From Squalus acanthias (Eukaryota), in NCBI GenBank assembly GCA_030390025.1, contig CM059431.1, forward strand, positions 118,236,001-118,300,000: a stretch of 64,000 bases of DNA, read 5' to 3'. The notes under the pieces are model-generated. The model was not told the DNA's origin, searched no databases, and saw only the letters and a list, made by a program, of their open reading frames with translations. Below, piece by piece: positions 12,943 through 56,431 of this stretch; position 1 is the stretch's first letter; every line of letters starts with the position of its first letter. A program made the translations under genes and the position numbers.

Positions 12943-14565
12943 TGTAAAGTTTCGCAATTATCGCGATTCGAAATAACATAATAGAAGCAGATTCGTTTGA
13001 TCAGTTTTATTAAACAAAATGCTGTCCTGATAATAAAGGACACAGAAGCCTGTAAAATGGCCACCGAGCATCGTGGCAGAAGCTTCCAGAATTACAGTGG
13101 GCAGACAAGATGGCGTCGAATATACATTTTAGTATAAGATTGGATCATACTCGGTAAACACTGATAAAGACAGGATGCAACCTGTTTGCATTTGGAACAA
13201 TAGCAAAGATATAAGTGCTGGAATCGTTTTCCCATGAACAAGTAAGGATCATTGTACTGGGCAATCGAAGGCCCATCCAGACACATCAATACACAAATAC
13301 CCCCCGGCTCTACAATGAGAGAGACGTTGACGGGTGATTAAGCAAGTATTCGGGGGCCCCCAAAACCAGTCAGGGAGACGATTCATACACATCCTGGCTG
13401 GGTCAACAATGGGGAAAACATTAACGGGTAGTTGGCCAGTTTCAGGTGCTACCGAAACCCGTTAAAGAGAAGAATCGCCCCATGCTGGAAGTTTTGAGCG
13501 CCAATATTACACAAAGGACAAACATTAAGATTTGAGCGGGAGATAAGGGAACACAGCACTATAACTATAGTGAACAAATGTCCATTGGTCTCTTTTTGAC
13601 TCGCTCGATCGCTGGCTGAAGCTCTTCCTTAGGGCAGGACTTTGTTGACTTTTTGACTCTTAGCCGTACTGGTCGGTTATTCGAATGTTGGGTGGAGCTC
13701 AATCGGAACGAGCCGCCCCGACAAGGGCAAGTAACAGGGTGCACCATCCCGAGTGTCAGTAAACGGTGTCTGGACCCGGAGGCCCGAAGAGACGAGATGA
13801 GACGAGAAGAAGAGGAGAAGAATCCACGTGCCGCCACGGTCAGTAAACCCCGACCGCGCCCGAAAATATAAATAAAGAACTTTTCATTGAAGTCTACCGA
13901 CAACCGGTGTCGAGCACAGGAAGACTCTTCTTTGAATTATACAAATGTTTCCGAGTTCTGTCGAGTTCTTCATGACAACAGGGAGCCTGGCCTGCTTGTC
14001 GCAGCAGCGAAAATAAAACAAGTGGGGTACAGAGACCCTTCCAAACACGTGACAGTCAGGCGCTGCAGCGAAACGAGCCGAGTGCCTCACTTTAAAATTC
14101 TCCGAAGTAACACGAGTGGTGAGCATGTTTTACGATCCTACAAATCTAGACATAGTGTAGGTATTGTTAAGGGAGGGTGGTTATTAAGGCTAAGAGATTA
14201 TGTGTTTCCCTTTTTACGATGTGCCGTGCGTTCTTCATTTCCATAGACCAAGCTTTATGAATGTATGTATACTTGTACTCTCGTTAATTTGCACCTATGA
14301 CATGTACTTCATGATCTTGGACGCTATGCAATAAAGATTTCCATTTCGTACTATTCAACCGGGTCCATTTGAGTTTTCTCTGCATTACTGCTCCCTGCAC
14401 CTAAGTCCAGTGTTAGAACCGTAAGGGCGAGTGGGTCGAACCACTCACAGGTGCTTATTGCAAAAGGGCTGGCCGGAGACCAGAGCAAGCAATAGTATTA
14501 GGCAACGAAGGCCGAACCTCGCACCAGCACCGTCTCTGAGAGACACGGTTCCCGAAACCCTTAAA
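12943..14565 (+). repeat. 5' LTR of provirus A
   Basis: Starts TGTAAAG and is repeated at 18971-20447. AATAAA at 14330. Followed by GAAAA and the PBS. Confidence 0.92.
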
Positions 14566-14569
14566 GAAA

Positions 14570-16393
14570 ATGGTGACCGCGGCAGGACATTGGCAGCAGG
14601 AGAGTATTGTTTTAGACCCTGGTTTGAATAGGCGAAATGTGATGGATGACAGGGTAGCCGACTATGTGTTTGGGAAGGTTAACTTAACCAAAAGGTGGAT
14701 AAGTGACCTACTGATGGATAAGCGTCCGCTAGACGCCGCCATCAAATGGACAGACAGTAAAGAGCATAAGAAGTCGGTAGAGAAAGCGGTCTGGCTGATG
14801 TGCTACAAGAAGCAAGTCCAACTTTCGGACCAGGTCATTGTGGCACAGGCAGCTCAGATCAGGGAATTGGAAGTAGAGATGGAGGAAAAGATCACGGGAG
14901 GACAAAAACTCATTGCATCATTGAATGCGTTACATCAGGAACGCCAAATAGTAGCCAACCACCATGAGGCTAAAATTGATTACTTAGAATGTCAGGTCAC
15001 GGAAGCGAAATTAAACGAGGGTAGGATTAGAGAACGGTGTGCCCGCCTAGCTAACCAGATAAAAGCCCAGGAAGAAAGCTTGAAGGGAGTTAGGGCGGCA
15101 TATAAGATGGCCCTCGAGGATAGGCATGAGGGAGCCGACCACAGTGTTTGCCAGAAGGAGATAGGGAACCTAAGAGAGGCCCTGAATAAGGCAAACGGCT
15201 TGGTGTGCCTCATCAGCCCGTCAGCAAACCAGCCACAGGTGGGTAGGGAATTCCCAAAATCCCTACCAGACAAAGCAGAGGAAGTATTTGCCACTGTGCC
15301 CTCCACGCCACCCAGCTATTCGGCAACCTGGGTAAGGGAGGAAGTGGTGGAAATAGAGAAGGAGGTTCCCGAGGTAGGACAACCCCCGGAGGGAGAGTCA
15401 AGACCGGGACCAATGTGTCCGCTCCGAGGTCACAAGAGAGGCCCGAATGCAGCCAATGGTGAAGATGGGGATGTCCTGAACCAACTTGTATTGCCCCACA
15501 GCTCACACCAGCTGAGAGCAATGATTAGCCATGTACGGAAGCTGTCCGAGTCAGACGACCCTTCCGTACATTTTAGAGAAGTAGAACAGACCGCAGCGAT
15601 TAATGGCTGCGACGACGAGGAAAAGACCAAAATGTTGCTGTTCTCTTTAGATAGCTTGATCCTTCAGTGTCTCTCAGACGAGAGCAAGAAGGGAAATAAA
15701 ACCTATGAGGAGTTACGGGACGAGGTCCTAGAAGTGTTAGGGGCGGATGACGAAGGTCCGTTCGTCAGATTGAGTCAAACCATACAGATGGAGGGAGAAC
15801 CCCCGAAGGTTTTCGCCGACAGGCTGTGGCCAGTATACCAGCATAGCTGCCCAGGTGCGCCAGCGCGCGTCTTTCTGAACGGCGCCGGGAAAGCTCATTG
15901 GCTCAGGTGTTTAGTAGCCAACAGCTTGCCAGCCGTCAGGGAGCAGGCCAAAGCGTGGTTTGATCCCACTAACCCCGCCACAACAGAGGAGTCTGTCCTA
16001 AATCGACTCACCATAAGGTATCAGAACACTAGGAGCACGGGAGCGCGTCCCCTTAAGGGAAAGGTGCATGAGGCAAGGCCCGCAGCCCCGGCTCAGAAAG
16101 AGTGGCATCAGGAGGGAAATCGCGCCCCACAAACCAGTGGTGTTTGTTACGGGTGCGGGAAGACAGGTCACTGGCGTAAAAACTGCAGGAATCCCTGGAA
16201 GGACCCCAGGGACAAAGCTCGCGCAGCCCGAACCCAAGCGCCTGTCTCTGAGAAAGGAGCCGGTGTGCCTATCCATCCCGATGCGATAGAATCAATGTTG
16301 GGAGCCATGCGGTCCCTTATGATTTCGCAAGGGAGGGTGGCAGTCGCTACCGGCCCCACAGATGCCACAACCCCGTCCACCGGTACCCAATGA
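14570..16393 (+). CDS. gag: Gag polyprotein (607 aa), provirus A
   Basis: Open ORF with N-terminal coiled coil, PPSY motif, capsid-like region and CYGCGKTGHWRKNC zinc knuckle. Confidence 0.92.
   Translation: MVTAAGHWQQESIVLDPGLNRRNVMDDRVADYVFGKVNLTKRWISDLLMDKRPLDAAIKWTDSKEHKKSVEKAVWLMCYKKQVQLSDQVIVAQAAQIRELEVEMEEKITGGQKLIASLNALHQERQIVANHHEAKIDYLECQVTEAKLNEGRIRERCARLANQIKAQEESLKGVRAAYKMALEDRHEGADHSVCQKEIGNLREALNKANGLVCLISPSANQPQVGREFPKSLPDKAEEVFATVPSTPPSYSATWVREEVVEIEKEVPEVGQPPEGESRPGPMCPLRGHKRGPNAANGEDGDVLNQLVLPHSSHQLRAMISHVRKLSESDDPSVHFREVEQTAAINGCDDEEKTKMLLFSLDSLILQCLSDESKKGNKTYEELRDEVLEVLGADDEGPFVRLSQTIQMEGEPPKVFADRLWPVYQHSCPGAPARVFLNGAGKAHWLRCLVANSLPAVREQAKAWFDPTNPATTEESVLNRLTIRYQNTRSTGARPLKGKVHEARPAAPAQKEWHQEGNRAPQTSGVCYGCGKTGHWRKNCRNPWKDPRDKARAARTQAPVSEKGAGVPIHPDAIESMLGAMRSLMISQGRVAVATGPTDATTPSTGTQ
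14571..14588 (+). promoter_or_regulatory. Primer binding site, tRNA-Arg(TCG)-like (provirus A)
   Basis: TGGTGACCGCGGCAGGAC just after the LTR. One mismatch to the complement of the vertebrate tRNA-Arg(TCG) 3' end as I recall it (GTCCTGCCGCGGTCGCCA). Confidence 0.8.
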
Positions 16394-18970
16394 CTAGAGC
16401 CCGCGCAGCCCGTCTACCTGTGTCCGCTCAGCTATGATGCGTGGAAAAGACCCCTGGTGGAGATGGAGGTAGAGAAGCAGAAGGGTAGTTATTTGTTGGA
16501 CACGGGAGCTTCATGCACCGTGATTCATACGGATAGCCCCTTTGACTCACCACTGTCTACCAAGGTCCCATTCACATTAGCGGGGTTCACGGGAAAAGAG
16601 CAGGCTGGCGCATTCTCCATTCCGCTCTCCATTCATTTAGGAGCACTCCACACCACATGGAAGTGCATACTGATGAAATGGCAAGAGGGGGGTGGCAGAG
16701 GTATCCTCGGATCGGATCTCCTATCGGAACACGGGATCCTCGTGGACCTTAGGAATCACTGTCTCTGGGGAGCCAAGGGTGGAAAAGGCAAGGTAGTTGT
16801 AATCCCGGGGAAGGAAGGTAAAGGGGCCCTGTGTACCATGAAGCCAACCGGAGGTTACGACGTCGGGCTTATGGTCGCGGATGTCCCAACGGACATGCAA
16901 ACGTATGTGTCAGATAATATGCACGCGTTTGCAACCCACAAGCACGATTGTGGGAGGGTTACCGGGTTTGAGGTCAGCATAGACGGGGACCCCATGACCC
17001 GGCCCCAAAAGCAGTATAACTTCCCCAAAGAAGCAGAACCCGACATGGAGACAGCAATGTCCTCATTGGTGCAGCAGGGCGTGTTGAGGCCGATAGCCAC
17101 ACACGTGAACTCCCCATTATGGCCGGTAAGGAAGCCGGATAATTCGTAGAGGGCCACGGTGGACTACAGAGTCCTTAACAGTAACATTCCCGCCTGCGCG
17201 CCCACAGTAGCAGCAGTTGCTGACCTAATAGGGAGTTTCCCAGCATCCACGACCACATTCACGGTGCTGGATATCTCGAACGGTTTTTGGTCCATCCCGC
17301 TGCGGCGAGAGGACCAGTACAAGTTTGCCTTTACTTTTAAAGGACAACAGTACACATGGAACTGTTTGCCACAGGGTTTCCACAACAGCCCCAGTATTTT
17401 CCATCAGTGTATGGCAGGAAGTTTAAAGGAGTTTAGTCAGCCCAATCAGATAGTGCAGTACGTGGATGATTTGCTCCTGTTCACGGACTCAAGGGAGGAG
17501 CATGGACCACTGCTAGCCGAGTTATTGGAGCTGCTAGCGAGAAAGGGTTTTAAAGTGAACCCTAAGAAAGCACGTATCGGTCAGCAGGAAGTAAAATTCC
17601 TGGGTCTGACCATTCGCGCTGGGGAAAGAGCCATAGATAAGGCTAGGAGGGAGTCGGTGCAGGAGTTACCGATTCCCAACACCATAACGGGTGTGAGGTC
17701 CTTTCTGGGACTGACCGGTTACTGTAGAGACTTCATCGAGGACTATGCGGCCACAGCAGCTCCGCTGCTCCGACTCCTCTATAAGGGAGTGGAGTGGTCT
17801 TGGGACGAGGGTTGTCAGGCAGCATTCGAGAAGTTAAAAGGGGATCTGCAGACCGTGCCAGCTTTAGGGGCCATAGATGGGGGGAAGGAGTTTTTCCTGG
17901 AGGTAGCTGCCAGCGGAGACAGCTTGAGCGCTGTGCTGCTCCAAGAGCGTCACGGCAAGCTGAGGCCGGTTGTCTATTCGTCCAGGGTGTTAACGGATGT
18001 GGAGAGGAGTTTTTCCAACTGCGAAAGGCATCTCTTAGCCACGCATTGGGCTGTGAAAAGATCAGCGATCTTCACAGGGCTCTCTCCCATCACTCTCCTC
18101 ACCCATCACACACCAACTTAGATGCTTCTAGATGGGAGGATTAAGGATGGGACCGTAAGCAGCGCTCGTATTGCGTGCTGGACCCTTCTCCTTTCCCAGA
18201 TGGATCTTAGAGTTAAAGGTCTTTGCGAGCCCAAGCTCGCGGCCAACTTGGTATACGCCGGAACAGCCCACTAGTGTTCGGTGGAAGGGGTGTGGGAGGT
18301 CAACATAGGTTTGCGGGCCGGGATACATCCCACAGGTCGCGAGATTTATGTTGATGGTTCCAGCACAGTGTCCGCTGGTGAACAACTCACAGGGTGTGGA
18401 GTTTATGACCCTGCGGCAAACCTTGTCCTGGCAATTAAACTCCCCAGCACCATGAGCGCACAGCAGGCTGAGCTGTCTGCGGTGGCGTACGTCGTTACCC
18501 ACCCAGAAATCTTCCCAACCCCATACACGATTTGTTCGGACAGTATGTTTACGTGCAATTCGTGTACGGAATACCTGGCCATTTGGTCCCGCCGTGGCTA
18601 CACCTCCGCGGACGGGCGACCTTTAACGGTGAAGCCCTTGCTGGAAAAGATCCTAGCAGCAGTAGGGGAGGAAGGGGAGATTTTCTTCCATAAGGTGAAG
18701 GCTCACTCCTCCACAGAGCCCCGCGGGGAGGGCAACCAGCAGGCGGATGCGCTAGCCAGGGACGGTGCCCGTAACGGCATTTTCTGGGACCCCTATGGAC
18801 CCGGACCAGTGGCAGCGATCCAAGGCAGGGAAGGGAATCCCGGGAACACCAGGATAGCACTGCCCCTAGACCTTAAGACCATCCAGAGCCAGGATCCCGC
18901 CCTAAAAGCAGTTCTCAGAACGATTACTGAGGGCAAGCAGGTAGAGGGCCCGTACAGTACGGCAACCCTC
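16394..18970 (+). pseudogene. pol: pro-pol: protease, RT, degenerate RNase H (tether), RNase H; three nonsense codons; truncated before the integrase core
   Basis: Same frame as gag. Motifs LLDTGAS, LDISNGF, LPQGFHNSP, YVDD, and IYVDGSS/AQQAEL/SDS/KVKAH/GNQQADALA. TAG at 17147, 18119 and 18272. Confidence 0.92.
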
Positions 18971-20447
18971 TCCAGAATTACAGTGGGCAGACAAGATGGC
19001 GTCGAATATACATTTTAGTATAAGATTGGATCATACTCGGTAAACACTGATAAAGACAGGATGCAACCTGTTTGCATTTGGAACAATAGCAAAGATATAA
19101 GTGCTGGAATCGTTTTCCCATGCACAAGTAAGGATCATTGTACTGGGCAATCGAAGGCCCATCCAGACACATCAATACACAAATAACACCTGGCTCTACA
19201 ATGAGAGAGACATTGACGGGTGATTAAGCAAGCATTCGGGGGCCCCCAAAACCAGTCAGGGAGACGATTCGTACACATCCTGGCTGGGTCAACAATGGGG
19301 AAAACATTAACGGGTAGTTGGCCAGTTTCAGGTGCTACCGAAACCCGTTAAACAGAAGAATCGCCCCATGCTGGGAGTTTTGAGCGCCAAATATTACACA
19401 AAGGACAAACATTAAGATTTGAGCGGGAGATAAGGGAACACAGCACTATAACTATAGTGAACAAATGTCCATCGCTCTCTTATTCCCTTGACTCGCTCGA
19501 TCGCTGGCTGAAGCTCTTCCTTAGGGCTGGACTTTGTTGACTTTTTGACTCTTAGCCATACTGGTCGGTTATTCGAATGTTGGGTGGAGCTCAATCGGAA
19601 CGAGCTGCCCCGACAAGAGCAAGTAACAGGGTGCACCATCCCGAGTATCGGTAAATGGTGTCTGGACCCGGAGGCCCGAAGAGACGAGACGAGATGAGAG
19701 GAAGAGGAGAAGAATCCACGTGCCGCCGCGGTCAGTAAACCCCGACCGCGCCCCAAAATATAAATAAAGAACTTTTCATTGAAGTCTACCGACAACCGGT
19801 GTCGAGCACAGGAAGACTCTTCTTTGAATTTTACAAACGTTTCCGAGTTCTGTCGAGTTCTTCATGACAACAGGGAGCCTGGCCTGCTTGTCGCAGCAGC
19901 GAAAATAAAACAAGTGGGGTACAGAGACCCTTCCAAACACGTGACAGTCAGGCGCTGCAGCGAAACGAGCCGAGTGCCTCACTTTAAAATTCTCCGAAGT
20001 AACACGAGTGGTGAGCATGTTTTACGATCCTACAAATCTAGACATAGTGTAGGTATTGTTAAGGGAGGGTGGTTATTAAGGCTAAGAGATTATGTGTTCC
20101 CCTTTTTACGATGTGCCGTGCGTTCTTCATTTCCATAGACCAAGCTTTATGAATGTATGTATACTTGTACTATCGTTAATTTGCGCCTATGACATGTACT
20201 TCATGATCTTGGATGCTATGCAATAAAGATTTCCATTTCATACTATTCAACCGGGTCTATTTGAGTTTTCTCTGCATTACTGCTAAGTCCAGTGTTAGAA
20301 CCGTAAGGGCGAGTGGGTCGAACCACTCACAGGTGCTTATTGCAAAAGGGCTGGCCGGAGACCAGAGCAAGCAATAGTATTAGGCAACGAAGGCCTAACC
20401 TCGCACCAGCACCGTCTCTGAGCGACACGGTTCCCGAAACCCTTTCA
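18971..20447 (+). repeat. 3' LTR of provirus A, lacking its first ~142 bp
   Basis: Matches the 5' LTR from 13085 onward. Ends CCCTTTCA followed by the TSD. Confidence 0.92.
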
Positions 20448-35089: not shown

Positions 35090-35091
35090 AC

Positions 35092-38584: not shown

Positions 38585-39703
38585 CTAGAGCCCACGCAGC
38601 CTGCCTACCTGTGTCCTTTTAAAAGACACGCACAGGAGGGGGTCTCCGGTAGGGAGGCCAGGTTAGTAGAGCAGGCCTTGCGGGAGGAGAACGCCCGTTT
38701 AATAAGGAAAGTAGACGGGCTAGAAGGACAGCTTAGAGAGCAGGCCCTGCGGGAGGAGAACGCCCGCTTAATGGGAAAGTTAGACGTGCTCATGCTAGAA
38801 GCACAGCTTAGAGAGATAAAGGCAGCCTAGAGGGTAGCCAGAAGCAGGGAGTATGAGGATTTAAATCAGTGCAAACTGTATAAGCCAGGTGCACAAGGGC
38901 CTACCTCAGGGGCCAAACCTGCGAGTGGGGACTCGCAGCCCCAGGTAGGGCCACAGGGCACACAGGCAGGCAAAGCAGCTTGCATCAGGGGAGAGGACAT
39001 CCTAGAAAAATGTAGGATCTTTTATTGGGGTTGGGAGTCAGATGAGGAAGAGTTCGAGGAGCTCGACGAAGATAGTGACACAAGCGAGGAGGAGCTGGAA
39101 TCGGAGGACGAAAGGGTCGCCCCCGATTCAAGTATAGGGGGGACAGGGGCTGCAGATAGAGATCCACAAAGGGTGGAGGCCGAAGCTGCAGGTCACGAAC
39201 GCAGGGGGGCGGAGCTAGGGGAGGCGGAGCCAGCCGCTGTGGTGGGACCACAGGGCGTGGCGATGGAAGCCTCAGAGCCCGAGCCGCCCGGCTTGAACGT
39301 CTTGCCCTCGAGGGAGGTAGGGACTGCGAGTGAAGGGCCGCCTACTGGGCCAAGTAGGGCGGTGACACAAGCTGCAGATCCCGAGTTCAGGGAGGCGGAG
39401 TCAAGGGAGGCAGAGCCAGCGACTGTGGTGGGACCACAGGTCGCCACGGTGGAAGTCTCGGAATCCGGTCCGTCGGTCCTGAAGTTCCTGCCCCCGGTAG
39501 CTCTCCGTAGGTCAAGTCGGACACCCCAGCCCAGGAAGATATGGTCAAGTCCCCAGAGTGTCCCAAGGCGTAGGTTCAAGGCTAAGGCAGCCCAGGGAGA
39601 GCCCAGTCACAGCGCAGCAGCAACAGGCTGCGGCAGATCAAAGGGAGGGGTCAATGCCCTCCCACCGTTGGGAGAAGCCTGCGGCAGCAACCGCAGAATT
39701 TGA
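38585..39703 (+). pseudogene. ORF-X (coiled-coil + acidic/Pro-rich), in frame with gag, one internal TAG at 38828
   Basis: Manual translation from the gag stop is open except for TAG at 38828 (Tyr in C). Homologous to ORF-X of provirus C. Confidence 0.75.
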
Positions 39704-42794: not shown

Positions 42795-43315
42795 TGTAGA
42801 ATTCGCAAAATTATCACGATTTTATAAATATGAAGGAGACATATAGTTTCGTACAAACAGCTTTATTTCAGCAGAATGCTGTCAGGTTTTCAAAGTGGAC
42901 ACAAACAGCCTGTAAAATGGCCGCCACGCCTCGTGGCAGAACGTTCTAGACTTTCAATGAGCAGACAAGATGGCGTTCCAATAAACATTTATGCGAGATC
43001 GTACAAGACTCAGCACATTTGAGATAATTGACAAGACATAATGGGTTTGCATTTTATACATAAATACTGGAATCGGTCTCCCAGGTGCGAATAAGGGCTA
43101 TTGTACCAAGCGATCAAGAACCCATCCAAAGACATTAATATGCAAAATCCCCACAACTCTACGATGAGAGAGCCGTTTGCGGGTAGTTACAGAAAGCATT
43201 TGGAAGCCCCAAAACCCCTCCAGGGAGAATACTGACCGGTTCCACAATGGGAGAAGTATTAACGGGTACTCAGACAGTTACAAGTATCACCGAAACCCAT
43301 TAAACGGAGATCACC
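42795..43315 (+). repeat. 3' LTR of provirus B, first part
   Basis: Matches the sequence from 35092 onward and is cut after GATCACC. Confidence 0.92.
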
Positions 43316-44967
43316 TGTAAGGGTTTTGACACGCCTGTGGCTCTGTGCTTAGCCTGGGTGCTAGTGCGAGGTTAGGCCTTGTTGCCTGTTCTGGTCTCCA
43401 GCCAGCCTGGTAGCACTAGACACCTGAGAGTGGTTCGACCCACTCGCCCTTACGGTTCTGACACTGGACTTAGTTGCGAGAGCAATAATGCAGAGAAAAC
43501 TCAGGTAGACCCGGTTGAATAGTGCGAAATGGAAAATCTTTATTGCATATTATTCAAGATTACGAAATACATGTCATAAGCACAGATTAATGACAGTACA
43601 ATCTTACACGCAGTTATGTAACTAATTTTAGGGAAACGAGGAGCGCACGACACATCGTAAAAGGGGGCACACATTACAATTATCCTTAAAACTTAAACCC
43701 TCCCCTATCAATACCTGCCCTAAACTAGATTTGCAGGATCGAGACTCATGCTCACCACTCGTGATAACTCAGAGAATTCCGAAACTCTGCTCGGATGTTT
43801 TTACCGCAGCGCCTGACCACCCACGTGTTGATCAGGGGTCTCTGTACCCCACTTGTTTACTCGTTTCTGCTCCGGCTAGCAGGTTGGACCGTCTGCTGTC
43901 ATGAAGATCTGTGTTGTCCTCGGAGTTCCGACACGACTCGAAAAATAGTCTTCCTGTGCCCTCGTCCCGATGCGATAAAACCCGAAGAATGGTCTTCCTG
44001 TGCCCTCACGCCAGTTTGTAAAACTCAAAGAATAGTCTTCCTGGGCAAGGAAAGTGTTTATTCGACCTACAGGCGCGGTCGGGGCTTACTGACCGTGGCG
44101 ATACGTATGGTCGTCTTCTTCTCTTCTCATCTCATCTCATCTCGGGCCTTCGGTTCCAACACCGTTTACCGACTTCTCGGGATGGTGTGCCCGTTTCAAG
44201 GCTTCACAGCCCAGTTCCACACAGATCTTCGCGGCAAGCCACGAGGTTGATCCTGGCGGATCAGAAAGTTCAAAAGTCTTCTAGCAAGTCGAGCAGCAAG
44301 AGGCAGAGACAGCAGTCAAGAGTCAAGAGCAAGAGAAAGATGGACGGTTGTACCTTACAGTTATAGTGCTGTAATTCCTCTTTTCCCGCCCAATCTTAAT
44401 GTCTTTTCTTTTGTCAGAGTTTTGGCGCTCAAACTTCTTGTATAGGGTGATCTCCGTTTAATGGGTTTCGGTGATATTTGTAACTGCCTGAGTACCCGTT
44501 AATACTTCTCCCATTGTGTAACCGGCCAGTATTCTCCCTGGAGGGGTTTTGGGGCTTCCAAATGTTTCTGTAACTACCCGCAAACGGCTCTCTCATCGTA
44601 GAGTCGTGGGGATTTTGCATATTAATGTCTTTGGATGGGTTCTTGATCGCTTGGTACAATAGCCCTTATTCGCACCTGGGAGACCGATTCCAGTATTTAT
44701 GTGTAAAATGCAAACCCATTATGTCTTGTGATTTATCTCAAATGTGCTGAGTCTTGTCCGATCTCGCACAAATGTTTATTGGAACGCCATCTTGTCTGCT
44801 TATCGAAAAGTCCAGAATGTTCTGCCACGAGGTGTGGTGGCCATTTTACAGGCTGCTTGTGTCCACTTTGAAAACCTGACAGCATTCTGCTGAAATAAAG
44901 CTGTTTGTACGAAACTATATGTCTCCTCCTTATTATATAAAATCGCGATAATATTGCGAATTCTACA
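43316..44967 (-). repeat. 3' LTR of provirus C
   Basis: Complete LTR, preceded on the minus strand by CAGGAGGGAC as in B. Confidence 0.93.
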
Positions 44968-45418
44968 GTCCCTCCTGTTGATGCGAATAACTCCGCTTAT
45001 CGTATCAAAAATATTGTGGTGAGCAATATTATCTCGATTCTCCACATCCAGAAAATCCCCATAACTTAAAACTATCTACGGTCTCTGTGTCGTCCTTATT
45101 TCCCAGGAAAAATTACATTCCTATAACACCGCAGGCAGCATTAGCCTTTAACTTACACCACTTGTTTTTCCTTCCAGGTGCAACCAGGCTGATGCCTCTC
45201 GCACCACCTGTATATGCATATTTTTTATTCAAGGGAAAAAAGAAAACAAAAACAAAACCAAACAATCATATTCAACAACAACACCATCACCAAAATAATC
45301 AAAACCAACTCTTAAACAAAGAGTTCCAAACTTAATTACAGTTTCTGAGAAAAATCACGATCGATTACAACACTTCCAAGGCGCACGTGGCAAATGGGAG
45401 TGACGCCATTTTGTCTGG

Positions 45419-47769
45419 TTACACGGTGCTTTCATCGTGCACGCGCACGTAACGTTCTCGCCACTCTCCCATGTTTTCGTTCTTGGTGAGGCGTTTGCCT
45501 CTCTTACAATGCACGACCAATAAGTATATCACAATAAACACTTGGCATACTACTAAAATGTGGGAGGCTATCCTAATCCAGGAAGGCACTTCAATGTTGG
45601 TGAACAGATTCCACCACGGTGGAATTACTATGTCCAGAATTTCTGTCCCTATCTCGACAGTCTTTTGTTCTAGGGTGTAAAAATGTTTTTGCGATACCGC
45701 GACGGCTTTCAAAAGCTTGGTGAGGTGTTCAGGGAGAGGGGGAATGAGGTATCCGAAATGCGCGACGAATCGCTGCAGGTCGGTGAAGTTCTCTTTTACG
45801 GTAAGATGAACCGTGGATGGTTCAGGGATTGGGACAATTCGCTGTTGTGCTACTTGAACTTCCGCCCTGGGTTTGAAACAGAAACTGCTGTCACTCACCG
45901 GACACCGGCTACGGTTTCCATGTTGGTAGTGTTGCGCTGCAGTGGTAACACAATATGTTCCACCCCCGATGTATGCTACCTGCGGAGGCACATGATCTTG
46001 TGCCATTGCCTCCATGGTGCAATTCATGGGCTTGGCGCCAGCCGTTCTGAACCCGCACTGTGGTGTTAAAAAGGCATTCAAGTGCTGGGGACACAGTATT
46101 ATGTGTGCTCCCCGGCCACGACAACCAGAGAGATCTGTACCTGTCATCGTTTGCTCCCAGCGGATGACGTAAGGTGGAACCGCTGCATAGCGAATGTGGG
46201 CTCCCCCCTGAATGACACCAATGTTCTCTACCCGATACACCGGGGCGGGCTTTGTTGTGTCGCTCAAAACCGGCATACGTAATACTATACCCATGATAGT
46301 ATGGTTTGATCGTCCACAGTCCACGGGGACTGGGTATGCTTCTGAAGCTAGCCTGAGCTGGCACGGGCTTAATGTGTTCTGAAAAGGGTGGAGCGCCTGC
46401 AGGTGTTTGTTACTTATCCAGGACGGGACCAAACCTTGTTTTAAATCCTCCAAATTACTGCGGCCCTCGCCCAGTAACCACGCCCCGTAAAGCACGCACA
46501 CCTCATTCTGCGCAGCCTGATCGGACGCATTCCGATCTTCCCTAATCAGGGCATTTACCGTACGCGCGTGTTTCTCCAGCTCAGCTATTATTTCTTTTAA
46601 ATGGAGAGTCATGGCCTGGTCCTCATGTAACCCAGACCCAACCACCTTATTTTCATCTGTGAGAATGCTTTTTAATTGCGTTTTTAAGCCATTAATCTGG
46701 GTCTGCAGCTCCACGCTGTCTAGAGCGTTGACCACAGATGTACCTGTGTTGAAAGCAGTGAACACGTCGTTCACAACACCCCTTCTTTGCCTCCCCACCT
46801 GATCCAAAACTTCATGTGGTGCGGTGTACAAACTTGTTTTATCAATTTCCGCGAAATCGAACTCATAAAATTGTCTGAACATCTTGGTCAACAGGACCTG
46901 ATATAACTATTCCGTCTTTTTGGGGCACCACTCTGGTAACCGCACCTCGGTGAGATTTAAAATCACCGAGGCCACCGCGTAATGTACCCCCTGAAATAGT
47001 ATCTGGTCTGTGGGGACCAGTACCAAACCATTCCCGGGTCCCTTACTGGTTTTAGGGCACCCTTCTTCCTTAGCTAGAACCACCGGAATCGTGGGCGGGG
47101 CTTTGCATGGGCGCGTAATGAGTTCAGTGGCATTTACCGGGATCGGGGAGTATGGGGCTCCGCACCCCCTGGTGCTCGCATCCCACCTCATCCCCTGTCC
47201 GTTATCCTGCCATTGATTGATGAAAAATATGGAGATGCCTTTGGGGCAAACGTACTTTGACCCCCACATGCATACATAAATTCCCTCATCCGGTTCCCAC
47301 CATTTGTCCCAACAGACTCTCACTTGTCCGTTTGTCCCCGTAATTGTCCGATGGGTATTATTACCCAGTCGCTCCCACTCGACCGAAGAGTTCCTCATGT
47401 TTTTGCTCAGCTTTTGTAGCCACCACCATCGGCTCAATGGGACATTCCCATTACAAGTCAAACAAATCCGTTTGCTGACGGTGACGCTGACTCTGGGTGC
47501 GATGATCCTTACTTTGGGGCACATTAAAGAAGTCTCTTGTAGGCAAAACCCGATGTACTGGAATACTCTGTTGAATTCGTTCCCAGCCATCCTGGCCACC
47601 TTCCCTTGTGGAAATAGGTGGTGGTCTCCTCAGCCTCTCGCCTTCCGGTCCCATCCACCGCGATGGGGGCCGTGTCCCCGGAGCATCCAAACACCACGAC
47701 ATCCTTGGTGTGGCCTCGATAGGCCAATCCACATCCGATTGCCGCGAGCAATACTAGAATTCGTTCCAT
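45419..47769 (-). pseudogene. env: Envelope glycoprotein of provirus C; C-terminal 490 aa (furin site to tail) open
   Basis: RQRR/GVVNDVFTAFNTGTSVV, heptad repeat, Cys-rich ectodomain and TM. Stops at 47524 and 46907, frame change at ~47512. Confidence 0.88.
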
Positions 47770-48066: not shown

Positions 48067-49212
48067 TTAAATCCTGAGAAGGCTGCCACGAGCTTTTCCC
48101 GACGGTGTGAGGGCATTGACCCCTCCCTTTGATCTGCCGCAGCCTGTCGCTGCTGCGCTGGGACTGGGCTCTCCCTGGGCTGCCTTAGCCTTGAGCCTTC
48201 GCCTTGGGACACTCTGGGGACTTGACCATATCTTCCTGGGCTGGGTTATCCGACTTGACCTACGGAGAGCTACCGGGGGCAGGAACTCCAGGACCGACGG
48301 ACCGGGTTCCGAGACTTCCACCGTGGCGACCTGTGGTCCCACCACAGTCGCTGTATCCGCCTCCCCTAACTCCGCCTCCCTGAACTCGGGATCTGCAGCT
48401 TGTGGCACCGCCCTACTTGGCCCAGTAGGCGGCCCTTCACTCGCAGTCCCTACCTCCCTCGAGGGCAAGACGTTCAAGGCGGGCGGCTCGGGCTCTGAGG
48501 CTTTCATCGCCACGCCCTGTGGTCCCACCACAGCGGCTGGCTCCGCCTCCCCTAGCACCTCCCCCCTGCGTTCGGGACCTGCAGCTTCAGCCTCCACCCT
48601 GTGTGGATCTCTATCTGCAGCCCCTGTCTCCCCTGTACCTGAATCGGGGGCGACCCTTTCGTCCTCCGATTCCAGCTCCTCCTCGCTTGTGTCACTATCT
48701 TCGTTGAGCTCCTCGAACTCTTCCTCATCTGACTCCCAACCCCAATAAAATATCTCACATTTTTCTAGGATGACCTCTCCCCTGATGCAAGCTGCTTTGC
48801 CTGCCTGTGTGCCCTGTGGCCCTACCCGGGGCTGCGAGTCCCCACTCGCAGGTTTGGCCCCTCCCCTAAGACAGGCCACCGCCCCTGCTTGTTTCTGTGA
48901 GATCTCACTTGCTGGAGGCTGCAGATTTCTATCCTGTTTTAAATCCTCATACTCCCTGCTCCTGGCTACCCTGTAGGCTGCCTTTATCTCTCTAAGCTGC
49001 CCTTCTAGCACGTCTATTTTTCCCATTAAACGGGCGTTCTCCTCCCGCAAGGCCTGCTCTCTAAGCTGCCCTTCTAGCCTATCTACTTTCCCCATTAAGC
49101 GGGCGTTCTCCTCCCGCAGGGCCTGCTCTTTTAACCTGGCCTCCTTACAGGAGACCCCCTCCTGTGCGTGTCTTTTAAAAGGACACAGGTAGGCGGGCTG
49201 CGCGGGCCCTAG
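48067..49212 (-). CDS. ORF-X, 381 codons, fully open and in frame with gag after TGA-CTAG
   Basis: 39 open codons link the gag stop to ORF 48067-49095. Contains repeated QALREENARLMGK units, an acidic tract and duplicated VVGPQ repeats. Confidence 0.8.
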   Translation of the reverse strand, partial: LGPAQPAYLCPFKRHAQEGVSCKEARLKEQALREENARLMGKVDRLEGQLREQALREENARLMGKIDVLEGQLREIKAAYRVARSREYEDLKQDRNLQPPASEISQKQAGAVACLRGGAKPASGDSQPRVGPQGTQAGKAACIRGEVILEKCEIFYWGWESDEEEFEELNEDSDTSEEELESEDERVAPDSGTGETGAADRDPHRVEAEAAGPERRGEVLGEAEPAAVVGPQGVAMKASEPEPPALNVLPSREVGTASEGPPTGPSRAVPQAADPEFREAELGEADTATVVGPQVATVEVSEPGPSVLEFLPPVALRRSSRITQPRKIWSSPQSVPRRRLKAKAAQGEPSPSAAATGCGRSKGGVNALTPSGKARGSLLRI

Positions 49213-51018
49213 TCATTGGGTACCGGCGGACGGGGCTGTGGCATCTGCGGGGCCGGTAGCAACCGCCACCCTTCCATGCGCACTCATGAGGGTGCGCATG
49301 GCTCCCAACACTGATTCGATCGCGTCGGGATGGATGGGTGCACTAGCTCCCCTATCAGAGACAGGCGCCTGGGCTCGGACTGCAGGATTTTTATCCCTGG
49401 AATCCTTCCAAGGGTTCCTGCAGTTCCTGCGCCAGTGCCCTGTCTTCCCATACCCGTAACAAGCATTGCTGGCCTGCGGAGCGCGGTTACCCTCCTGATG
49501 CCACTCCTTTTGAGCCGGGGCTGCGGGTCGTACCTCATGCACCTTTCCCTTAAGGGGACATGCTCCCATACCCCTGGTATTACAGTACCCTACCGTGAGT
49601 CGATTTAGGACCGACTCCTCTGTAGTGGCGGGGTCAGTGGGATCAAACCATGCTTTTGCCTGCTCCCTGATGGCTGGCAAACTGTTGGCTACTATATACC
49701 TGAGCCAATGAGTTAGACCGGCGCCGTCCAAATCGGCGCGCTCTGGCGCACCTGGGCAGCTACGCTGGTATACTGGCCACAGCCTGTCGGCGAAAACCTT
49801 CGGGGGTTCTCCCTCCATCTGCACTGTTTGTCCCAGTCTAACGAACGGACCTTCATCGTCCATTCCCAACACTTCTAGGACCTCATCTCTTAGCTCCCCA
49901 TAGGTATTAGTTTCCCTCTTGCTCTCGTCTGAGAGACACTGAAGGATCGAGCTGTCTCGTGAGAATAACAGCATTTTTGCCTTTTCTCCATCGTCGCAGC
50001 CGTTAATGGCTGCGGTTTGCTCTACTTCCCTGAAATGTACGGAAGGGTCGTCTGACTCGGCCAGCTTCCGTACGTGACTGATCATAACCCTCAGCTGGTG
50101 TGAGCTGTGAGGCAACACAAGCTGGTTGAGGAGATCCCCCTCTGCCCCATCTATTCCGTTCGGGCCCCTTTTGATATCCGTGACCGGACACAACGGTCCC
50201 GGCTTCACTTCTACCTCAGTGGGCTCTTTCTTTACTTCTACCACTTCCTCCCTCACCCAGGTTGCTGAATAGCTGGGTGGCGCGGAGGGCATAGTGGCTA
50301 ATACTTCCTCCGCTTTGTTCGGTGGGGATTTCTGAAATCCCTCATCCACTAGCGGCTGGTCTGCTGACGGACTGATAAGGCACACCATGCCGTGCGCTTT
50401 GTTCAAGGCCTTTTTAAGGTTCTCTATCTCTTTTTGGCAGACGCTGTGATCGGCCCCCTGAAATTTATCCTCGAGGGCCATCTTATATGCCGCCCTAACC
50501 CCCGTTAAGCTCTCTTCCTGGGCTTTTATTTGGGCAGCTAGGCGGGCACATCGTTCCTTTAATCTACCCTCACTTAACTTTCCCTCAGTGACCTGGCACT
50601 CGAGGTAATCTATTTTTGCTTCATGGTGGTTGGCGACTAACTGGCGTTCTTGATGCAATGCATTTAAAGTCGTGATGAGCTGCTGCCCCCCCGCGACCTT
50701 CTTGTCCATTTCCACCTCTAAACTCTTGATCTGAGCTGCCTGCGCTAAGATGACCTGGTCCGAAATTTGGACTTGTCTTTTATAGCACATCAGCCAGACC
50801 GCTTTCTCCACTGCCTTTTTATGTTCCTTGCTATCTGTCCACCTCTCGGCTGCCTCTAGTGGACGCTTATCCACCAGCAGGTCACTTATCCATTTCTTGG
50901 TCAAATTCACCTTTCTAAACACATAATCTGCTATTCTCTCTTCCATTACATTTCGCCCATTCATACCAGGGTGTAACACATTATTCTCTCGCTGCCAATG
51001 TCCTGCCGCGGTCGCCAT
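49213..51018 (-). CDS. gag: Gag polyprotein (601 aa), provirus C
   Basis: Open ORF homologous to A and B gag. The zinc knuckle has a C>Y change (CYGYGKTGHWRRNC). Confidence 0.92.
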   Translation of the reverse strand: MATAAGHWQRENNVLHPGMNGRNVMEERIADYVFRKVNLTKKWISDLLVDKRPLEAAERWTDSKEHKKAVEKAVWLMCYKRQVQISDQVILAQAAQIKSLEVEMDKKVAGGQQLITTLNALHQERQLVANHHEAKIDYLECQVTEGKLSEGRLKERCARLAAQIKAQEESLTGVRAAYKMALEDKFQGADHSVCQKEIENLKKALNKAHGMVCLISPSADQPLVDEGFQKSPPNKAEEVLATMPSAPPSYSATWVREEVVEVKKEPTEVEVKPGPLCPVTDIKRGPNGIDGAEGDLLNQLVLPHSSHQLRVMISHVRKLAESDDPSVHFREVEQTAAINGCDDGEKAKMLLFSRDSSILQCLSDESKRETNTYGELRDEVLEVLGMDDEGPFVRLGQTVQMEGEPPKVFADRLWPVYQRSCPGAPERADLDGAGLTHWLRYIVANSLPAIREQAKAWFDPTDPATTEESVLNRLTVGYCNTRGMGACPLKGKVHEVRPAAPAQKEWHQEGNRAPQASNACYGYGKTGHWRRNCRNPWKDSRDKNPAVRAQAPVSDRGASAPIHPDAIESVLGAMRTLMSAHGRVAVATGPADATAPSAGTQ

Positions 51019-52788
51019 TTTCTATAAGGGTTTTGACACGCCTGTGGCTCTGTGCTTAGCCTGGGTGCTAGTGCGAGGTTAGGCCTTGTTGCCTGTTCTG
51101 GTCTCCAGCCAGCCTGGTAGCACTAGACACCTGTGAGTGGTTCGACCCACTCGCCCTTACGGTTCTGACACTGGACTTAGATGCGAGAGCAATAATGCAG
51201 AGAAAACTCAGGTAGACCCGGTTGAATAGTGCGAAATGGAAAATCTTTATTGCATATTATTCAAGATTACAAAATACATGTCATAAGCACAGATTAATGA
51301 CAGTACAATCTTACACGCAGTTGTGTAACTAATTTTAGGGAAACGAGGAGCGCACAACACATCGTAAAAGGGGGCACACATTACAATTATCCTTAAAACT
51401 TAAATCCTCCCCTATCAATACCTGTCCTAAACTAGATTTGTAGGATCGAGACTCTTCCTCACCACTCGTGATAACTCAGAGAATTCCGAAACTCTGCTCG
51501 GATGTTTTTACCGCAGCACCTGACTATCCACGTGTTGATCAGGGGTCTCTGTACCCCACTTGTTTACTCGTTTCTGCTCCGGCTAGCAGGTTGGACCGTC
51601 TGCTGTCATGAAGATCTGTGTTGTCCTCGGAGTTCCGACACGACTCGAAAAATAGTCTTCCTGTGCCCTCGCCCCGATGCGATAAAACTCGAAGAATGGT
51701 CTTCCTGTGCCCTCACGCCAGTTTGTAAAACTCAAAGAATAGTCTTCCTGGGCAAGGAAAGTGTTTATTCGACCTACAGGCGCGGTCGGGGCTTACTGAC
51801 CGTGGCGATACGTATGGTCGTCTTCTTCTCTTCTCATCTCATCTCATCTCGGGCCTTCGGTTCCAACACCGTTTACCGACTTCTCGGGATGGTGTGCCCG
51901 TTTCAAGGCTTCACAGCCCAGTTCCACACAGATCTTCGCGGCAAGCCACAAGGTTGATCCTGGCGGATCAGAAAGTTCTAAAGTCTTCTAGCAAGTCGAG
52001 CAGCAAGAGGCAGAGACAGCAGTCAAGAGTCAAGAGCAAGAGAAAGATGGACGGTTGTACCTTACAGTTATAGTGCTGTAATTCCTCTTTTCCCGCCCAA
52101 TCTTAATGTCTTTTCTTTTGTCAGAGTTTTGGCGCTCAAACTTCTTGTATAGGGTGATCTCCGTTTTAATGGGTTTCGGTGATACTTGTAACTGCCTGAG
52201 TACCCGTTAATACTTCTCCCATTGTGTAACCGGCCAGTATTCTCCCTGGAGGGGTTTTGGGGCTTCCAAATGTTTCTGTAACTACCCGCAAACGGCTCTC
52301 TCATCGTAGAGTCGTGGGGATTTTGCATATTAATGTCTTTGGATGGGTTCTTGATCGCTCGGTACAATAGCCCTTATTCGCACCTGGGAGACCGATTCCA
52401 GTATTTATGTGTAAAATGCAAACCCATTGGGGTAGAAATTAGGTCGCGCCCCATTTGGGGCGCAAATATCGTCCGGACGCAAATATTAGCGCCTGGCGCT
52501 AATTATCGGCACTGACAGGAAACTTCACTTTTACCGCCCCGGGAGGTGAGTGGAGCGCTAAAGTAGGCGCTGCACACCTCTCTGAAGGCGCAAAGGCCAA
52601 GGAGTGAGGCGCTAACTCAGCGCACGAGCGCAGCGCAGCTGCTGCCAGTTAGCGAGGGAACACAGACACAATGGCGCTGGACACTTCTTAAAGCGGGGGG
52701 GGGGGCCACTTGCTCCCCAGCCACACCCTGCTCATTGCAGCCTTGAATCTCAGCCTGGAGAGACCTGTAATCCATTTTGCTGCCAAGC

Positions 52789-54667
52789 ATGGAGAGGGTG
52801 AGAGAACGCGCTCATCGCTTCACCGAGCGGGCCTTGGATGCTCTGGTTGACGCAGTGGAGCGCAGACGTTGCATGCTGTTCCCGGAGAGTGGCAGGAGGC
52901 CTTTGCCACGCGATTTCAGAAGAGTGTGGAGGGAGGTGGCTCAGAGCGTCTCCTCCAGGAGCATGGTGCCCAGGACCCATGTTCAATGCCGCAAAAAGTT
53001 CAACGACCTCACTCGGGTCGTATGGGTGAGTGGCTTTTTCTCAATACCTCTCCATCCCTCCATCTCAACCTCACTCTATGGCCAGAGGGTCTTAAAACCC
53101 CAATGCACAACACTCATCCAACACCTATGGCCCTTTCATCAAACACACACACACACATTCCACACTTTGCATACAGTAAGGGCTATTCACCTATGGGAGG
53201 CACATCAGGCAAGACCATGGCTGCATACAGTAAGGGCTATTCACCTATGGGAGGCACATCAGGCAAGACCATGGCTGCATACAGTATGGGCTATTCACCT
53301 ATGGGAGGCACATCAGGCAAGACCATGGCTGTATATTTACTCAGATGCTGTCCTTTTTCTTGCAGGCTGAGCTGGCTCATAATCGGAGACAGCAGCAACG
53401 GACGGATGGAGGGCGGCTTCAGCTGCAACCCCTCAGCGATCTGGAGGAGCGCGTCCACAGGATTGTGGCAAGCCGGGTGATCGGTCCCGTCGCCACTGGA
53501 GATGCCGACCCCGTTGTGGACAGCAATGGTAAGGTCATCACCTTTTTGTCCTCTGTCCTTCCACTTGTCCTTCACAATACCAGCCTTTGACACTTTCAAT
53601 CCAACTTGCTAACTCACTGCACTTATTCCTCCCTTACTGCCACCCTGTCCTCACGCTAAAGCCACTCTTGTACCTCCCTGCTTTCAGATGGTGATTCACC
53701 AGCTGAGGAGACGGGCCCTGAAGCTGCCACTGGGAGTGATGCTGCAGCTGAGGAGGAAGAGGAAGCCGGAGCATCAGTGCCACCCTCTCCCGAGGAAGCC
53801 CATGCCCACACTGGGAACACGCCTTCCCCGGAGGGGAGCAGGGGGGAAGGGGCTGATGATGGTGAAGCTCCAGGACCCAGCGGGCTGCAGCAACGCCATG
53901 GGGGGGGTAGGGAAGAACGGGGGCCTTCTCCCCAGAGGGAGAGTATGCCAGACACTCCTACTGCAATGGACGCAGAGGAGGAGCGGCTGATTGCAGAAAT
54001 GAACACCCAGGCGGTGGGCATGCACACTGAGCTCATGGGTGCAGTGGGAAGGGTGCCCGATTGCATTGAGTCACTGGCAAGGAGTGTGGAGCACTTCGCT
54101 GTAGCACAGGCGGATGCCACACTAACGCTTAGTGCTGCAATTCAGTCAATGGCTGCCGTGATCCCACCTCTGACTGCTCTCATACAGACTCAGATGGAGG
54201 CCACGCGAGCACAGACTGCTGCCAACCTCGATGGTTCGTGCACATGTCCCCGGGGCTGTCACCGCGCCGCAGCAGGCCAGCAATCTGTTCTCCGGCAAAT
54301 TGCTCCGGATGCTGAAGTGCTGCCCCGTGGGAGTGCCAGTGTGTCGGGCGAGCAGGGAGTTGCTGGCCTCTCTCACGATGACAGCATTCCTGCTGCCAAC
54401 ACTGTCACTTCTCCACTGCACTTGCCACCGCCTGTAGGACAGACTGCTGCCGCCCATGCAGAGTTGGTGCAGTCTGCAGCCGGGCCCTCCAGGCCCAGAA
54501 GTGGTCGAGGCCGTCCTTCAGGGGCATCTGCAGTGTCAGGGTCTGACGAGCAGCAGCCTTCCACCAGCCATGCTGCAGCCACTGAGGTCCCATTACGGAG
54601 GAGCAGTAGGGTTAGAAGGGGGGAAGTGCGCAAGGGAAGGAGATCACCCTCGAAAGGCAAAAAGTAG
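52789..54667 (+). CDS. Myb/SANT-like DNA-binding protein of H2; predicted exons 52789-53025, 53366-53528, 53688-54667 (~459 aa)
   Basis: MERVRERAHRFTERALDALVDAVERRR..WREVA..QCRKKFNDL. GT-AG introns with compatible phases give an uninterrupted frame. Confidence 0.82.
53169..53330. repeat. 54-bp tandem repeat, 3 copies, in intron 1 of the H2 Myb gene
   Basis: GCATACAGTAAGGGCTATTCACCTATGGGAGGCACATCAGGCAAGACCATGGCT repeated head to tail. Confidence 0.9.
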
Positions 54668-54680
54668 GAGGTGTGCCAAA

Positions 54681-55047
54681 ATAAGAACATAAGAACATAA
54701 GAAATAGGAGCAGGAGTAGGCCAATCGGCCCCTCGAGCCTGCTCCGCCATTCAATAAGATCATGGCTGATCTGATCCTAACCGCCAATCTACTATCTATC
54801 ACAGAACCATCTCCTGCATCTAACAGAATTGCACACACGAAATAGGAGCAGAATCAGGCTACACAGTCCCTGGGCCCGCTCCACTACCCACAGGGCCATG
54901 ACCGATCCGAACCTAGACTCATGTCCAAATTCCTGCCCGCTCCCCGTAACCCTTAATGCCCTTTACTTCTAGGAAACTGTCTATTTCTGTTTTAAATTTA
55001 ATTAATGTTGTAGCTTCTACAGCTTTTTGTGGCAGCATATTCCATGG
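54681..55047 (-). mobile_element. CR1-type LINE 3' end inserted between the two H2 genes
   Basis: (ATAAGAAC)n tail and the AGGAGCAGGAGTAGGCC 3' UTR, as at 5831 and 59870. Confidence 0.85.
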
Positions 55048-55342
55048 ACCTACCATGGAATATGCTGGTCATTTTTTTATTAAAGGCCGAGGTTCATGGT
55101 CCAACTTTTGTTTAGTGTTTTGGACATTATCTCCAGGTTGTGAGAACCAGTTATGTTATTGACTGTTTTTTTGTGTTTATTTCTATGAGTTTGTCATGAG
55201 GAATTGACACACACAGAGTTTGTAAAATAAATAAGTTTCTGTATTCAAAATATACATGGCTGGTGGTTGGAATTATTGGTGCCTTGGCCGGCTTAGGGGT
55301 TGCGTGCTGGGTTGATTAGTGTTTGTAGCAATGGCAGGGGCC

Positions 55343-56431
55343 CTAGAAGCGGCTTGCTATTAGTCGTTGACGGACGGCCCTTGCAGTTTGACCATTGTGG
55401 GCTGCCCTCCTGCCTTGGTGCTGCTGATGATCATCGTCCTCGTCCTGTTCCTCCTCTTCCTCCTCCTCCTGTGGTGGTGCTACAAGGCCTGGTGGCATTG
55501 GCTGGGTCCTGAGGATTGCCATGTTGTGCAACATGCAGCACACGACTACGAAGTTCGAAACTTGCTCAGGCGAGTACTGCAGGGCTCCTCTGGAATGGTC
55601 CAGACAGCAGAACCGTTGTTTCAGCATGCCGATTGTGCGCTCAATAATGTTCCTGGTTGCTTGATGGCTTTCATTGTACCGCAGCTCAGCAGGGGTGTTT
55701 GGCGTACGGAGCGGTGTCATCAGCCAGGTGCTCAATGCGTACCCCTTGTCCCCCAGAAGCCAACCAACTGGCTGATGCGGTGCCTCGAAAACTTCTGCCA
55801 CAGTAGTCTGGCGCAGGATGAAAGCATCGTGGCAGCTGCCCGGATAGTGGGCATTGACAGCGAGTATCACCTGTCTGTGGTCACAGACCAACTGCACATT
55901 CAAGGAATGGAACCCCTTTCTGTTCCTGAATTCCTCTGCATTCTCTCGCGGAGCACGCAAAGCCACATGCGTGCAGTCAATGGCGCCCTGCACCATGGGG
56001 AAGCCCGCTACCCTCGCAAAGCCCAGAGCACGGTCCCGCTGCTTGTCTGGGGTCATAGGGAAAGAGATGAAGTCTCGTCTCCTTCTGAAGAGGGCATTGG
56101 TGACCTGCCGGATGCAGCGATGCACCGCAAACTGGGAGATATTGGCGAGGTCCCCAACAGCAGCTTGGAATGAGCCAGTGGCGTAGAAGTTCAAAGCCAC
56201 TGTGACCTTCACTGCCACCGACAGAGACGTCCTGGACCTCAGCTGAGGCTGCAGATCTGGCTGCAGCAGGTGGCAGAGCTCAGTGACCACCTCCTTGCTG
56301 AATCGCAGCCTTCGCAAACACAGCTCCTCGGACATATGGATGTAGGAGAGCTGTTCACGATATACCCTGGGAGGGTAAGCTCTCCTGTACATGCGCCTGA
56401 TGGCCCTCCTCCGTCTGGCCATCATTGCCAC
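55343..56431 (-). CDS. HARBI1-like DDE transposase of H2 (362 aa)
   Basis: GAIDCTH / LLGDKGY / RNIIERTIGMLKQRF carry the full D-D-E triad. An upstream in-frame ATG (56503) is cut off by one TAG (56465-56467). Confidence 0.93.
   Translation of the reverse strand: MAMMARRRRAIRRMYRRAYPPRVYREQLSYIHMSEELCLRRLRFSKEVVTELCHLLQPDLQPQLRSRTSLSVAVKVTVALNFYATGSFQAAVGDLANISQFAVHRCIRQVTNALFRRRRDFISFPMTPDKQRDRALGFARVAGFPMVQGAIDCTHVALRAPRENAEEFRNRKGFHSLNVQLVCDHRQVILAVNAHYPGSCHDAFILRQTTVAEVFEAPHQPVGWLLGDKGYALSTWLMTPLRTPNTPAELRYNESHQATRNIIERTIGMLKQRFCCLDHSRGALQYSPEQVSNFVVVCCMLHNMAILRTQPMPPGLVAPPQEEEEEEEQDEDDDHQQHQGRRAAHNGQTARAVRQRLIASRF

Follow-up and report, generated by a model that had tools for sequence, protein, structure and literature searches.

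A pol-less endogenous retrovirus family of Squalus acanthias with an open frame behind gag that appears to combine the two ends of pol with a Gag coiled-coil fragment of another lineage

What stands behind gag in a provirus from which pol seems to have disappeared, and is the replacement of any use to the element? The question is raised by a window of 64,000 nucleotides from Squalus acanthias (the whole stretch of DNA that was analysed), in which three related proviruses are found, A and B on the plus strand and C on the minus strand. Both B and C have the layout LTR-gag-X-env-LTR, where X is, in C, an open reading frame of 381 codons from stop to stop, located directly behind the gag stop (ORF-X, 48067-49212, minus strand; Table 1). 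The two LTRs of C differ by 1.4% mismatches, the 5' part of its 5' LTR being truncated by another insertion at 52429, and its env is disrupted by a 1-nt deletion near 47540 and by a stop at 46907-46909. The 3' LTR of B is cut at about 43315, at the end of the 3' LTR of C (43290-43340), so that C appears to have been inserted into the LTR of B in the opposite orientation. In element A (12951-20444) the 3' LTR lies directly behind RNase H, integrase and env being gone. The gag start codon of C is found 4 nt past the LTR end, within a primer-binding-site-like stretch (51001-51021).

Table 1. Features of elements A, B and C, in positions of the window
Feature	Position	Strand	Remarks
Element A, pol-bearing relative	14540..18973	+	gag, protease, RT, tether, RNase H; integrase and env lost
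ORF-X of copy B	38585..39703	+	other junction type; stop at 38828-38830
3' LTR of C	43315..44970	-	paired with 5' LTR
env of C	45419..47769	-	signal peptide, furin-type site, F-like features
ORF-X part 4, Pol C-terminal tail past the integrase SH3-like domain	48067..48861	-	in frame with integrase elsewhere
Basic motif in tail (RSSR..QP core)	48223..48264	-	invariant in 10 continuous aligned diverged rows
ORF-X part 3, 26-codon segment	48862..48939	-	probably diverged remnant of donor capsid start
ORF-X part 2, coiled-coil helix assigned to a sister Gag lineage (captured)	48940..49176	-	Gag identities, tree, omega
Tandem unit, 23 codons x2, in part 2	49060-49128 and 48991-49059	-	sequence
ORF-X part 1, protease/pol start, 12 codons	49177..49212	-	matches pol start of L029-L031 and L056
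gag of C	49213..51018	-	open; ends TGA then CTAG (readthrough-type context)
Own Gag coiled-coil stretch of C, homologous to insert	50476..50562	-	12/29 identical
5' LTR of C	51022..52428	-	98.5% identical to 43315-44720

From its composition, ORF-X is best described as a hollowed-out pol and not as an accessory gene. Residues 1-12 of X are the protease start, and residues 118-381 can be aligned to Pol's C-terminal tail. This tail runs in frame from integrase in the pol-bearing copy L029 and is likewise in frame with integrase in L055, L057 and L058; the stretch of pol that starts with codon 13 and ends with integrase has given way to a gag fragment, itself shortened by an internal deletion. 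Overall, ORF-X is made up of a 12-codon protease piece, a captured gag piece of about 80-105 codons and an integrase C-terminal tail of 264 codons, two thirds of the frame being pol sequence. Given these tail and protease matches, and the pol-bearing members with the same tail, X is a hollowed-out pol for which a close helper family is present. An earlier note on this DNA had proposed that ORF-X stands in place of pol, and this is borne out by the two flanks of the insert, protease start and integrase tail, as well as by gag adjoining X directly in 20 of the 20 fetched copies (17 of them continuing through env). The idea, put forward in the same note, of an accessory ORF lying between pol and env fails, since in the pol-bearing members integrase is in frame with the tail and, among those examined, no copy of the insert was found between tail and env.

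Longer forms of X (L047, L048 and L050) retain more of gag, namely the coil, a His-Cys segment and a capsid-start-like piece. The last of these precedes the 26-codon segment and, when set against the start of the L054 capsid, gives an ungapped alignment (12/34) with a score of 41, compared with a maximum of 36 among 150 shuffles; the 26-codon segment by itself gave low scores only. In a single-sequence fold model the long form of X is predicted to contain one helix (residues 22-93, pLDDT mostly 80-98). No enzyme domain was detected in X by a Pfam search, and a protein search with X gave nothing at E<=0.001 among 7,998 candidates; with the insert, five matches were obtained in a 50% library, the three inspected being unrelated repetitive coiled coils. 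The best ESM Atlas match of X (0.83) is a lead only. Contigs of four runs, not recorded as RNA, span the element. As for the tail, it is acidic and of low complexity with a basic end, and closes with the stop at 48067-48069. Its basic motif presumably resembles nucleosome-binding motifs, a likeness for which a literature search found no paper. An acidic tail of ~250 residues after integrase (L029:5640-6430 and relatives) seems peculiar to the ORF-X family; the frog relative P0012 ends directly after the SH3-like domain, without an acidic tail.

With regard to the origin of the insert, the earlier note had pointed to a stretch of 29 residues (48964-49050) that aligns without gaps to the element's own Gag, with 12 of 29 positions identical. 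The alignment is confirmed: its BLOSUM62 score is 53, a value reached by none of 1,500 plain shuffles (maximum 40), none of 1,500 heptad-position shuffles (maximum 47) and none of 1,500 core/non-core shuffles (maximum 43), and the likeness, which exceeds that to shuffled coiled-coil sequences, argues for homology and not for a generic coiled coil. The same cannot be said of the claim that ORF-X repeats Gag's own coiled coil. Third codon positions of the insert and of its own gag agree in 11 of 29 cases, near saturation, and a recent self-duplication from gag was rejected, the DNA alignment being no better than codon shuffles. When sister Gag families of the same genome were reached via database Gag relatives, the insert was found identical to them (L034-L040) at 21-24 of 43 positions, against 14-16 of 43 for the own-family Gags; in 65 columns free of gaps, X agrees with L034 at 38 and with its own Gags at 23-24. 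A tree of 18 rows, which covers a short region and includes P0008 as a long branch, places X with L034 and P0008 (support 94/98, just below the tool's star); X and the own Gags as one clade are rejected (p-AU 0.0005; 0.023 with P0006 added). Judging from these alignments and the tree, the insert evidently stems from a sister lineage of Gags resident in this genome and not from the Gag of the element itself.

The insert is 51-58% identical to the sampled sister Gags, whose families are present in many copies. The nearest named Gag relative, 56% identical, is from a skate. A near-identical donor gag was sought with two motif patterns, of which the first gave 362 matches, all 100 listed being of the L040 type, and the second 0 matches; no such donor turned up with these patterns, although a closer one may exist. 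In L032 and L033, which belong to the P0007-like Gag family, coil segments of variable length are found inside Gag itself, so that the Gag coil would seem to tolerate repeats.

The copies of ORF-X allow the history of its reading frame to be followed. In a set of 21 copies (19 of 20 fetched as top matches to X, the truncated L013 being left out, together with B and C), 15 have an open frame throughout, three have one early stop and three have private 1-nt deletions; the in-frame stop inside ORF-X of copy B (Table 1) is absent from the earlier note. All multi-base indels in X are multiples of three (10 of 10, or 7 of 7 once the repeat-unit events are removed, with a chance of 5e-4), compared with 3 of 16 gap runs, partly nested, in the non-coding spacer; out-of-frame lengths occur, for comparison, in 9 of 21 gags. 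Four types of insert-to-tail junction (long, C, B and L028) have been found, all of them in frame and all retaining the helix, which stays while the remaining insert shrinks. The tandem repeat, the unit of which measures 23 codons, the differences between B and C (a 6-nt indel and a segment of 15 versus 26 codons) and the frame kept through indels were correctly described in the earlier note; single-unit forms of the insert are found in 3 of the 21 copies. Moreover, a frame of at least 345 codons is open in 108 of 150 scored copies, and the four indels seen in 11 diverged tails, nine of them rows picked for long frames, are all multiples of three. Twelve extra copies were picked for long open frames; the codon analyses exclude three of them, L043 and L051, which have a frameshift close to the start, and L052, which was examined separately.

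The gag stop reads TGA-CTAG or TGA-CTGG in all rows aligned, in X copies and pol copies alike, and UGA-CUAG promotes readthrough according to the available text of one study (PMC9661723). The arrangement is that of a readthrough Gag-Pol, with an in-frame stop whose context is stimulatory and an open frame behind it. A stem-loop after the gag stop is not convincing (z -0.7 to -2.6, dinucleotide shuffles).

Selection on the product, which had also been inferred in the earlier note, applies to one part of the frame and not to the other. In a codon model the insert has an omega of 0.43 (30 copies, 76 codons; 2dlnL about 22 against an omega of 1) or 0.48 (21 copies; 2dlnL 13.1), and shows purifying selection, while the tail, with an omega of 1.07 (20 copies, 220 codons) or 0.88 against L031, evolves neutrally. 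The corresponding values are 0.66 for gag (12 of 21 copies), 0.91 for the own Gag coil, where divergence is little, and 0.24 for env (12 of 19 copies; 2dlnL 151), all omegas being pushed towards 1 by post-insertion mutations and assuming one tree where recombination is evident. Within the insert, omega is 0.28 for unit 2 and 0.65 for unit 1 (2dlnL 2.1), the latter indistinguishable from neutral. Between the two units, which date from after the capture, there is an excess of synonymous differences, with a ratio of 0.12-0.37 in five of six copies and of 1.23 in one. Singletons in the insert (30 N : 12 S, omega 1.02) and shared variants (19 N : 15 S) differ in the direction that agrees with constraint, not significantly (p 0.58).

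The family is abundant. A pattern spanning the protease-insert junction gave 1,468 matches in the 3.7-Gb genome (control 0), corresponding to at least 1,468 copies; with one mismatch allowed, the matches of two further patterns (2,603 and 3,933) coincide in part and give no ratio of X to pol copies. LTR pairs differ by 0.3-1.4% in eight elements, so that the amplification must be recent, and exact 4-bp target-site duplications are found in 4 of 7 full copies. Pol-bearing relatives were sampled by fetching three of 40 scored RT-bearing matches, and from 20 matches that have the tail only in common with C; of these, L028 is of the X type and four more were sampled. Three of the four are pol-bearing with integrase in frame with the tail, and L055/L056, L057 and L058 are 97-98% identical to C in the tail and 93-94% at the gag end. 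The fourth (L059, G000:C4:64104440-64104980) represents a separate deletion, in which the Gag capsid runs in frame into the C-terminal domain of integrase and the tail, the insert being absent; being seen in 1 of 40 scored matches only, it did not spread. X copies lack the RT/integrase core, were amplified after its loss and share the genome with a related pol-bearing family, as is characteristic of helper-dependent ERVs, and from this architecture we infer that the family is mobilised in trans by a pol-bearing helper. In addition, env is strongly constrained in this pol-less family (in C and in L009-L028), which suggests a spread by particles that bear Env, the Env being provided in cis. The insert cassette is linked in frame to several Pol tails and is found behind Gags of at least two types, that of C and that of L053 (one gag of the latter type was examined), which are 76% identical; because the dS of the insert between the two backbones (0.07-0.17) is far below that of their gags (0.67), the cassette moved between them by recombination.

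What, then, could the frame be for? The reading that we prefer, in which our confidence and our doubt are about equal, is that Gag-X is a protein made by readthrough and kept by selection, in which the captured helix promotes assembly with proteins of the helper; its translation and its binding are predicted from the letters of the genome. A few percent of the ribosomes would pass the gag stop, as is required for pol in the helper, and the resulting Gag-X would join particles via its Gag part, in the slot normally taken by Gag-Pol. The captured helix would be the selected part, most likely an oligomerising module which binds its own copies or Gag-type helices and helps the Gag and RNA of the element to assemble with the Gag-Pol of the helper; the tail would be a flexible linker kept open, perhaps delivering the basic motif. 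Protease, RT and integrase would come from the helper, Gag and Env from the element itself. Several facts weigh against this reading: the tail, two thirds of X, is neutral, unit 1 alone is not distinguishable from neutral, and the heptad register is lost both at the 23-residue duplication and at the 2-residue insertion. Given these register breaks and the existence of single-unit forms, an exact in-register partner is unlikely. Furthermore, the helix would lie at the C-terminal end of Gag, far from the N-terminal coil in an assembled shell. More speculatively, and in our opinion possible but doubtful, the insert could be a portable cassette for parasitism at the protein level: with a foreign coil behind the readthrough codon, Gag-Pol would become an adaptor devoid of enzymes, so that a pol-less, Env-competent element co-assembles with, or out-competes, helper and sister retroviruses, and this advantage would be the reason why recombination has carried the cassette onto several backbones.

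The main rival to a Gag-X protein, although we regard it as rather unlikely, is an escape from RNA decay: the open frame alone would matter, readthrough clearing the region behind gag and shielding the genomic RNA from nonsense-mediated decay, with the peptide as harmless filler. A tail that has an omega of about 1 and yet an intact frame is what this explanation leads one to expect, and there is a precedent in MoMLV, whose RNA is shielded from decay by readthrough even at low efficiency (PMC7566565 and PMC9661723, in the portions available). It does not account for the omega of 0.43-0.48 in the insert, nor for the helix being kept and duplicated in every amplified junction type; moreover, a plain in-frame deletion would suffice, yet the common form has a foreign gag. 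Alternatively, ORF-X could be an inert passenger, a chance in-frame recombinant of which a few masters were amplified for other reasons, its constraint being inherited from the donor Gag or simulated by gene conversion between the units. The youth of the copies, which have had little time for private damage (LTR mismatches 0.3-1.4% in the 8 elements), the small number of independent events and a sampling that favoured intact copies would all be in keeping with this, but four in-frame junction types, 10 of 10 multi-base indels in frame, a synonymous excess between units that arose after capture and the spread to a second backbone make it improbable.

Truncated Gag is known to interfere with assembly in the copy-number control of Ty1, and the captured helix, possibly freed by the helper protease, could in a similar way bind donor-like Gags and spoil or divert their assembly. 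The helix is indeed nearer to the Gags of other resident families than to its own, and the donor-like families are multicopy; however, with an identity of only 51-58% to those sister Gags that were sampled, it does not follow them closely, and a benefit in cis is not obvious, which makes interference decidedly improbable. Finally, the version of the earlier note, a pre-existing SMC-like accessory ORF that was fused by the pol deletion and repeats the element's own Gag coil, fits the coiled-coil character and the Gag likeness but is almost certainly wrong, as pol-bearing members have no such ORF, the tail is Pol, an own-Gag origin is rejected, Pfam matches of ORF-X are confined to generic coiled-coil families below cut-off with no SMC family among them, and the published lokiretrovirus smc is annotated as a Gag N-terminus, 12 headers in the supplement of that paper reading smc-gag or smc-gag-pol (PMC7947760, as far as available).

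The preferred reading, a selected Gag-X protein, can be set beside systems already described, in each case in the parts of the source that were accessible. ETn/MusD and the deer-mouse mysTR derivatives (PMC10089650) are similar in having no RT or integrase, many young copies, a related pol-bearing family and an internal part replaced by recombination; they are largely without coding capacity, whereas the ORF-X family has conserved gag and env, and its replacement is an in-frame, apparently selected foreign gag. The zebrafish BHIKHARI elements Bik-1 and Bik-2 (bioRxiv 10.1101/2024.03.25.586437) are pol-less, related to lokiretroviruses and have an N-terminal Gag coiled coil, but Bik-2 consists of gag only, without pol or env, and neither a readthrough extension nor a second coil is described in the accessible part of the preprint. 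The Bik-1 Gag coil is required for membrane association (same preprint), and by this likeness the helix of Gag-X might, in a variant of the proposed mechanism, have a membrane role. Gammaretroviral, epsilonretroviral and SnRV-like readthrough Gag-Pols share the in-frame stop between gag and pol, and the Gags of SnRV and Ovex1 also have an N-terminal coiled coil; unlike these Gag-Pols, the readthrough product of the ORF-X family would be without enzyme (PMC2717909, in its accessible sections).

The parent family resembles lokiretroviruses (PMC7947760, in the text available) in a pol with PR-RT-tether-RNase H-IN and perhaps in an Env with F-like features. In these viruses smc is fused in front of gag, whereas ORF-X lies behind gag; ORF-X would be at most a second-hand copy of an analogous N-terminal Gag coil; cartilaginous fishes are absent from the hosts listed there. 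The layout of the parent family, LTR-gag-pol-env-LTR with PR, RT, tether, RNase H and IN, is common to all retroviruses and not diagnostic. For Env, the first ESM Atlas match is Fusion glycoprotein F0 (0.94, 208/256 features), no sequence match was found in Pfam (where PF00523 is the Mononegavirales F) or PDB, and a single-sequence fold reached a pLDDT of only 33. The nearest solved RTs are MLV-type and foamy, and the nearest database Pols, at 41-45%, are from frogs and coelacanth. The parent family may be lokiretrovirus-like. A search in listings of openly accessible papers found no account of the ORF-X family, nor of a pol-less family with an in-frame foreign gag fragment. These comparisons hint at a family that resembles known non-autonomous ERVs and whose apparently new feature is an in-frame gag fragment captured from another family.

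Helper-dependent retroelements are usually taken as decayed RNAs that retain cis signals only. In contrast, we have here a pol-less family of well over a thousand copies, with a strongly constrained Env and a seemingly new readthrough protein derived from a foreign Gag, and the insert hints at an undescribed manner of exploiting complete viruses. If the protein acts, defective retroviruses can evolve an assembly factor of their own, and the length variants would form a natural series for mapping the role of the N-terminal Gag coiled coil in a little-known group of retroviruses. If only the frame matters, the family offers a clean natural test of readthrough as a protection from RNA decay.

Some further features of the window deserve mention. 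An antisense ORF at 48071-48748 was considered as a gene and rejected, as it has no Met and is matched in length in 256 of 1,000 null runs. A LINE RT fragment lies at 12008-12874, and two PIF/Harbinger-type elements, each with a DDE_Tnp_4 transposase and a convergent ORF, are found at 32204-35107 and 53660-56464. Near the 3' end of gag (49253-49332), three neighbouring hairpins are predicted in C with a z of -5.3 (1 of 23 scanned windows); like folds are found in B, L010 and L056, and weaker ones in other families.
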